A DNA stretch of 64,000 nucleotides from Escherichia coli (GTDB lineage: Bacteria; Pseudomonadota; Gammaproteobacteria; Enterobacterales; Enterobacteriaceae). Positions 58,621-58,999 of the stretch are shown here, piece by piece. The stretch lies in NCBI RefSeq assembly GCF_003334315.1, contig NZ_QOWR01000007.1; one strand, 5' to 3'. A program made the position numbers and the translations under genes. Every line of letters begins with the position of its first letter. The first letter of the stretch is position 1. The notes below the pieces were generated by a model that saw nothing but the letters and a program-made list of their open reading frames with translations, was not told the origin of the DNA and searched no databases.

Positions 58621-58625
58621 TAATA

Positions 58626-58657
58626 AAAGCACGCCACCTTCGGGTGGCGTTGTTTTA
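58626..58657 (+). terminator. intrinsic terminator after ytfP
   Basis: acgccacc-ttcg-ggtggcgt stem then tgtttt. Confidence 0.75.
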
Positions 58658-58942
58658 TGCGATGTATCTCGCGATTTTTTTTTGTAACTTTTCCATCTTT
58701 TGCTTTTCTCTCCGAGCCGCTTTCCATATCTGCAATCGCATAAAAAACTCTGCTGGCGTTCACAAATGTGCAGGGGTAAAACGGGGGCACGCTTTGAACG
58801 GTGAGTATGAGTGAGGTCGGCTAACTTCCAGCAAGTGGCTATGAACAGCAAAATGGTGGTCGGGTTTGCTTGTTCTTACCGTTCAAGCCTTGCAACCGCT
58901 GAGAATAATGATGGTGGAATAGAGAGTTTATTTATCGCGGGC

Positions 58943-58982
58943 ATAAAAAAACCCTTACTAACCGAAGCCCGGCGTTCAGGGT
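58943..58982 (-). terminator. intrinsic terminator of ppa
   Basis: aaccct...agggtt stem (58950-58982) followed on the minus strand by a 7-U run (plus-strand aaaaaaa 58943-58949). Confidence 0.65.
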
Positions 58983-58999
58983 TATTGCGCTAGAAGAAC

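Follow-up and report, generated by a model that had tools for sequence, protein, structure and literature searches.

Organization of the interval between ytfP and ppa

The window, by which we mean the whole 64,000-nucleotide stretch of DNA that was analysed, reads at large as ordinary E. coli chromosome, and 24 kb of it is 100% identical to many complete E. coli genomes. Within it, the genes tamB (54497-58276) and ytfP (58279-58620), both recognized as ORFs on the plus strand, lie to the left of an intergenic spacer, and ppa (59000-59530, minus strand) and its neighbor ytfQ (an ORF on the plus strand, from 59840) lie to its right. ytfP codes for a protein of the gamma-glutamylcyclotransferase family that is identical to the K-12 product WP_001219160.1, and ppa, identified from its ORF and from the RefSeq annotation of an identical sequence, codes for inorganic diphosphatase. 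The two genes are convergent, and the spacer is downstream of both. The ORF ends at 58620 and 59000 place it at 58621-58999, a length of 379 bp, as the initial annotation of this DNA had stated. That annotation had also given the K-12 gene order correctly as ytfP-chpS-chpB-ppa: the corresponding stretch of K-12 MG1655 measures 886 bp and contains both chpS and chpB.

The initial annotation described chpSB as absent from the window. This holds for the genes themselves, because there is no chpS or chpB gene and tblastn searches with the K-12 ChpS and ChpB proteins gave no match in the window, but it does not hold for the DNA, because a segment homologous to chpB remains at 58793-58917. The annotation had named chpSB-homologous sequence as the result of an alignment that would count against it, and the alignment we made with K-12 contains such sequence in part, with 58793-58917 matching nucleotides 19-145 of chpB.

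Each of the flanking genes has a predicted intrinsic terminator in the spacer, as initially annotated. On the plus strand, a terminator scan found the ytfP hairpin, ACGCCACCTTCGGGTGGCGT, with a T-rich tail at 58631-58650, and on the minus strand the centroid fold of 58945-58983 forms the ppa element, in which a stem of the form AACCCT...AGGGTT encloses an inner stem and is followed by U7. Both have the features expected of intrinsic terminators–a hairpin followed by a run of U, located 3' of a gene and kept in relatives. The ytfP hairpin is retained at 96-100% identity in many genera of Enterobacteriaceae, and the ppa element is conserved 3' of ppa in Citrobacter amalonaticus, Raoultella and Salmonella diarizonae. 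These two elements are also part of the ancestral empty site. In genomes whose site is empty, among them members of Citrobacter, Salmonella diarizonae, Klebsiella, Raoultella and Kluyvera, the gap between ytfP and ppa is only 94-165 bp. Its contents are the ytfP hairpin (ACGCCACCYTCGGGTGGCGT and a run of T) and a short segment of variable sequence; several genera also have the ppa terminator in the form seen here. The spacer in the window is longer than these true empty sites by ~285 bp, and to judge from the alignments described below, this extra sequence between the two terminators is debris of a chpS-chpB module.

Across the family, the ytfP-ppa gap varies from 94 bp to more than 3 kb in the loci that we compared (L009-L082) and contains unrelated cargo; the site is an insertion hotspot. 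In Citrobacter youngae and Salmonella arizonae, for example, the cargo encodes Hcp (TssD)-fusion proteins, in Silvania a methyl-accepting chemotaxis protein, in Pluralibacter a NadS-family HTH protein with a 107-aa ORF beside it, and in Enterobacter small membrane proteins. Insertion sequences were also seen in two E. coli genomes. IS1A is annotated in strain FDAARGOS_1250 (NZ_CP069571.1, 477398-479275), beneath a match that is broken into two pieces and spans ~1.9 kb for a 1.1-kb query. In strain GF130 (L084, positions 1-476) an IS4 copy adjoins the hairpin, and no ytfP 3' end is present within the 1,557 bp examined.

Remnants of the chpS leader and of chpB

Pairwise alignment of the spacer and its flanks with K-12 gave three collinear blocks, separated by two deletions. 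Block one starts at the end of ytfP, extends to position 58783 and is 87.5% identical to the K-12 ytfP-chpS leader (86% in the portion that lies in the spacer). The leader remnant proper, defined by homology to the K-12 sequence 5' of chpS, is the plus-strand segment 58651-58783. Its last bases are GTAAAACG, and the place of a palindrome that has been deleted comes immediately after them. Near its beginning the terminator scan found a second small hairpin followed by a T9 run (58658-58682, plus strand), which has a homolog in K-12 and marks the start of a stretch that is confined to loci with chpSB or a relic of it. Leaders at the intact chpSB loci of Lelliottia, Enterobacter and Pseudocitrobacter align with this remnant; empty sites lack it.

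At the junction of deletion 1, the window has the nine bases GGGGCACGC (58784-58792) where K-12 has 312 bp. These 312 bp comprise 49 bp of leader, including the palindrome and the Shine-Dalgarno sequence, the entire chpS gene, and nucleotides 1-18 of chpB. The same junction is present in every relic haplotype examined, including that of E. albertii. We considered whether the nine bases are filler that arose through TTTG microhomology together with a second small deletion, and set this idea aside for want of an intermediate allele.

The nature of the deleted leader segment is apparent from intact loci. We aligned nine intact leaders, from Escherichia, Lelliottia, Enterobacter, an Enterobacteriaceae isolate, Pseudocitrobacter and Kluyvera, and all nine have the palindrome AGTTATACTTTGTATAACT followed by GGAGG and the chpS ATG. 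In this leader alignment, both the palindrome and GGAGG are missing from the window and from E. albertii. The palindrome is perfect and directly 5' of the chpS ribosome-binding site (L001, positions 909-927, and the same place in L004, L005, L029, L038, L047, L065, L067 and L082), and it is near-invariant over the six genera, in a leader that is otherwise poorly conserved. From its conservation and position, it is very probably the ChpS/ChpB operator, overlapping the -10 region.

The second block is the relic of chpB itself (58793-58917, plus strand), which corresponds to codons 7-48 of the MazF/PemK-type toxin. Pairwise blastn with K-12 chpB gave 72.4% identity over 127 columns (E = 9e-19), and when 58775-58930 was used as a blastn query against 5,426 complete E. 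coli genomes it landed on annotated chpB with an E-value of 1e-7 in 28 Gb of sequence. The old chpB reading frame is interrupted by two stop codons (TGA at 58802-58804 and TAA at 58822-58824) and by 1-nt deletions after 58806 and after 58866, and the K-12 residue is still encoded in 22 of the 42 relic codons.

The third block, from 58912 onward, is 95% identical to K-12 over the 3' end of chpB, the spacer between chpB and ppa, and the terminal part of ppa. It overlaps the second block on the hexamer TGGTGG, which occurs twice in K-12 chpB, at nucleotides 140-145 and 341-346. Deletion 2 therefore removed 201 bp (chpB nucleotides 146-346) between 6-bp direct repeats. At its junction (58912-58922, plus strand) lie the last 11 nt of chpB, which begin with the TGGTGG microhomology. 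The gene ends with GAA TAA in K-12 and GAA TAG in the window. All relic haplotypes examined share this junction. Because short direct repeats of this kind are the usual signature of slipped or illegitimate recombination, deletion 2 probably arose by such an event at the TGGTGG repeat.

The substitutions in the relic lack the pattern of a coding sequence. Its 34 differences from K-12 chpB are spread over codon positions 1, 2 and 3 as 11/11/12, whereas the intact chpB genes of K-12 and Enterobacter asburiae differ at 5/4/21 (chi-square test against the relic pattern, p = 1e-4). With the E. asburiae gene as outgroup, 26 of the 34 differences were assigned to the relic branch and 4 to the K-12 side, with 4 ambiguous. 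As far as can be judged from these comparisons, the relic has drifted for a long time without coding constraint.

Distribution of the relic among genomes

We surveyed the same 5,426 complete E. coli genomes for the relic with a cut-off of E ≤ 1e-15 and found a match in 2,325 of them. Most of these matches are close to the window in sequence (1,528 at ≥99% identity, 90 at 95-99%, 703 at 90-95%, and 4 at 80-90%), and both deletion junctions are as in the window in ~2,321 of the 5,426 genomes. An intact chpB is the sole match in a further ~3,098 genomes, and three genomes have no match. The exact allele of the window is found in E. coli B and in ATCC 8739; carriers of chpB include an ST131 strain and O157:H7 Sakai as well as K-12. 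Among the ~55 relic-allele matches listed, the RefSeq annotation has no feature over any of them.

The relic haplotypes that we aligned came from three E. coli variants, from a strain carrying esiB, from L006, which is a divergent Escherichia lineage, and from L008, the type strain of E. albertii. Each of them has the two junctions, both stop codons and the 1-nt loss after 58806, from which we conclude that the relic allele arose once. After 58866, the window, L006 and L008 have the deletion, and the other three haplotypes have one base where K-12 has two. Every relic copy examined has both of the large deletions, so the order in which they happened is not recoverable.

Intact chpSB, at the same distance 3' of ytfP, is found in E. 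whittamii and two other Escherichia lineages, and also in Lelliottia, Enterobacter asburiae, Pseudocitrobacter and Kluyvera. To judge by this distribution, chpSB is old at the ytfP-ppa site and has been lost repeatedly. Two further fragments were seen at the site in other genera: Citrobacter sedlakii (L025, 3430-3562) has a 342-bp spacer with a relic of independent origin that corresponds to ChpB residues 63-107, and Enterobacter cloacae (L031, 5100-5168) has a ChpS-like stretch just upstream of ppa (residues 9-31, 65%). Their presence suggests that chpSB has decayed here on repeated, separate occasions.

Of the four genomes with matches at 80-90% identity we examined one, E. coli HH97 (L087, 2730-3320). 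Its 591-bp spacer, which PGAP annotates as a partial ChpB pseudogene, is full of noise resembling G/C homopolymers and is a mixture of K-12-like and relic-like stretches. We considered it as a true intermediate allele and set it aside, because the noise and the mixed stretches make it look like an artefact of assembly or polishing, or a consensus of a mixed population. With HH97 set aside, the matches examined among the 5,426 E. coli genomes include no intact allele that is closer to the relic.

Interpretation of the spacer as a decayed toxin-antitoxin locus

We consider it very likely that the 379-bp spacer represents a chpS-chpB locus, a type II toxin-antitoxin module of the MazEF type, in a state of decay. 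An Escherichia ancestor of the allele carried chpSB at the ytfP-ppa site. The 312-bp deletion took the palindrome, the ribosome-binding site, chpS and the first 18 nt of chpB, and the 201-bp deletion took sequence from the body of chpB, between the TGGTGG repeats, leaving ~130 bp of leader, 125 bp of chpB and its last 11 nt to drift without constraint. The homology has the form expected of a pseudogene relic, being at the same site, in the same orientation, and collinear with the leader and the 3' flank, and so have the lesions, since the gene is cut at both ends, contains two stops and two 1-nt deletions, and has lost its coding pattern. The antitoxin gene that should lie intact 5' of the toxin gene is wholly deleted, only codons 7-48 remain of the 116-aa PemK/MazF-type ChpB ORF, and in place of an operator, ribosome-binding site and promoter there is neither palindrome nor GGAGG nor any promoter-like site. 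The initial annotation was thus correct that the window has no functional chpS-chpB, with no tblastn match, a deleted chpS and a broken toxin ORF. Its proposal, that the strain had never had the module or had lost it by a clean event, is contradicted by what the two deletions left behind: 125 bp from within chpB, the last 11 nt of that gene, and most of the leader.

It could be argued that the relic comes from a separate chpSB allele that was already divergent when it was acquired independently, so that most of its 27% divergence was pre-existing and did not arise by decay. Its identity to every intact Escherichia allele is indeed nearly uniform, at 72-74%, and the leader too has diverged from K-12, by 12-14%. 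Relative to other genera the relic is only 49-59% identical, whereas the chpB genes of those genera are 66-76% identical to Escherichia chpB; because it is closest to Escherichia chpB and far from the others, we place its descent in the Escherichia chpB lineage. The assignment of 26 of the 34 differences to the relic branch, evenly over codon positions, is a signature of decay and unlike that of a divergent allele that still functions, and the survey of 5,426 E. coli genomes contains no closer intact allele, the sole closer match examined being the likely artefact in HH97. We regard an independent, already divergent source as very improbable.

A second possibility is that the debris has been co-opted, as a small RNA, as a small protein such as that of ORF 58811-58993, or as a promoter or other regulatory element for ppa or ytfP. 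The allele is long-lived and is 100% identical across many genomes, a GGTGA motif is located 6 nt 5' of the GTG at 58811, and a long hairpin is predicted inside the relic. None of our searches for function gave a positive result. An Rfam scan of 58400-59200 with E-values up to 10 returned chance-level hits only, the best scoring 16-17 bits against gathering thresholds of 39-47, and a promoter scan found no sigma-70-like or other promoter-like site in the spacer. Folding of the 286-bp debris on both strands, compared with shuffled sequences, gave z-scores of -1.6 and -1.2, which are not significant, and the inverted repeat of the long hairpin is also visible by eye in the intact chpB of K-12. 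The spacer therefore has neither a match to a known RNA family nor a significant conserved structure with a promoter and terminator of its own, as a small regulatory RNA would, and the suggestion in the initial annotation that it could hold an sRNA or a promoter is unsupported.

The ORF at 58811-58993 (60 codons) fares no better. It crosses the relic out of frame and continues into the ppa terminator. A variant found in ~700 genomes shortens it to 30 codons, and E. albertii has GTA in place of the start codon. No family was matched in an NCBIfam scan of the four longest spacer ORFs. Taken together these properties indicate that it is not a gene, and they bear out the doubts with which it was first annotated. 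Two further observations speak against co-option: ppa and ytfP are both transcribed toward the spacer, and the divergence between relic haplotypes (4-13%, a figure from 125 sites that is confounded by recombination) is within the range of third codon positions in ytfP and ppa, which may fit neutrality, but is below that in tamB and ytfQ. Co-option is thus very improbable, a shade more so than the divergent source discussed above. The debris appears to be functionless in itself, even if read-through or spurious transcription may reach it, and only the two predicted convergent terminators would be at work in the spacer.

The remaining alternative, that the site is ancestrally empty and K-12-type strains gained the module by insertion into a lineage that never had it, would agree with the many Enterobacteriaceae that have a 94-165 bp gap and no module, and with the general view of chromosomal toxin-antitoxin modules as horizontally acquired (PMC7167474), but it has almost no chance of being right, given that 125 bp of chpB interior, the leader and the chpB 3' end are present in the right order and orientation in a spacer that exceeds true empty sites by ~285 bp.

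Age of the relic and probable exchange between lineages

Returning to the decayed chpSB locus as our preferred reading, we estimated the age of the inactivation. The relic branch has a length of ~0.25 substitutions per site. At third codon positions the window differs from E. albertii by 27-30% in tamB and ytfQ and by 12% in ytfP and ppa. Because the relic branch is at least as long as one lineage's share of the tamB/ytfQ divergence, the inactivation may be about as old as the split between E. coli and E. albertii, or older, a rough inference that is drawn from 125 sites and uses third-position divergence as a stand-in for the neutral rate.

The relic of the window differs from that of E. albertii by 12.8%. 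This misfits simple vertical descent, which should have given a value like the 27-30% seen in tamB and ytfQ, and exchange between species must therefore be invoked. A similar discordance is seen with the divergent Escherichia lineage L006, which differs from the window by 4% in the relic and by 23% at third positions of tamB. As the relic and its flanks are far less diverged than tamB and ytfQ, it appears that the ytfP-relic-ppa block was exchanged between Escherichia lineages after they had diverged. Codon bias in ppa could contribute to the difference between 12% in ytfP-ppa and 27-30% in tamB/ytfQ that is seen when the window is compared with L008.

Within E. coli, divergence between the window and K-12 is ~1% per 100 bp in tamB, ytfP, ppa and ytfQ, and rises to 13-29% in the spacer alone. 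We infer from this profile that the intact module and the relic are two old haplotypes of E. coli, whose flanks have been homogenized by recombination up to the edges of the indel. Elsewhere in the window, a patch at 62479-62678 (ytfR/ytfT) has 9-10 mismatches per 100 bp relative to K-12, against a background of 0-3, and is probably a recombination tract.

One could go further and propose that chpSB and the relic are haplotypes that have coexisted since approximately the time of the E. coli/E. albertii split while moving between lineages, a pattern for which balancing selection could be the explanation. We think this unlikely. If it were true, selection would be balancing the carriage of ChpB against its lack, for example a benefit in defence or anti-addiction against a cost. 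Neutral drift with hitch-hiking is the alternative, and the spike of divergence in the spacer fits either.

Relationship to esiB and to published states of the locus

A polymorphism at this locus has been described before. In 47 genomes, Pastorello et al. (mBio, 2013; PMC3735183) reported chpBS in 53%, esiB in 15% and neither in 32%, and they noted short direct repeats, partly symmetrical in inverted orientation, on either side of esiB. The states that we counted in the 5,426 genomes are ~57% chpB, 3.5% esiB (n = 188) and ~39% relic without esiB. In terms of the three published states, the window belongs to 'neither'. That state is presented there as one in which both genes are missing, whereas here the same state carries a relic of chpB.

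In E. coli THO-006 (L083, 1834-3868), esiB, which codes for a secretory IgA-binding protein, is located at 1983-3455. The repeats on its two sides prove to be the ytfP terminator hairpin in duplicate, GCCACCTTCGGGTGGC at 1846 and GCCACCTGCGGGTGGC at 3501. A chpB relic with the junctions of the window lies between esiB and ppa. The flanking hairpin copies and the position of the relic lead us to conclude that in this strain esiB was inserted into the relic haplotype. The relic background of esiB was checked at this one locus, and L084 has the same haplotype.

Comparison with other toxin-antitoxin loci and significance

The closest known system is chpS-chpB of K-12 (ChpBI-ChpBK), a type II module of the MazEF/PemIK family at the same ytfP-ppa site, with whose chpB gene the relic is homologous at nucleotides 19-145 and 341-351 and whose leader is kept. 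Unlike the K-12 locus, the window has no antitoxin gene, toxin ORF, palindrome or ribosome-binding site, and so it cannot work as a toxin-antitoxin module. For other modules, Mine et al. (Genetics, 2009) and Fiedoruk et al. (2015) are said to treat ccdO157 as an example of a decaying chromosomal toxin-antitoxin locus. In a review (PMC7167474, citing Fiedoruk 2015 and Mine 2009), decay of E. coli chromosomal modules by deletion and nonsense mutation is presented as established, and ccdO157 resembles the present case in being a toxin-antitoxin locus at a conserved intergenic position that is intact in some strains and destroyed in others. The difference from ccdO157, as described there, is that the module here is chpSB and that a single decayed allele is common to species-level lineages.

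Our search of the literature, which did not cover Fiedoruk et al. (2015), turned up no specific earlier account of chpB as a pseudogene or relic. Polymorphism in the presence or absence of the module was known before, and the relic adds to it a detail that causes little surprise and has little import for biology at large; the modestly interesting point is only the age of the relic haplotype and its spread across species. In practical terms, the annotation of a common E. coli allele is corrected, and those who use E. coli B/BL21-type strains or ATCC 8739 as a 'chpB-less' background can take the loss to be natural and complete. The locus is a clean example of a toxin-antitoxin module that was lost together with its promoter and the start codon of its toxin. 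The 'empty' state of the ytfP-ppa site in E. coli derives from an ancestor that carried chpSB, a history that bears on arguments over gain versus loss of chromosomal toxin-antitoxin modules.
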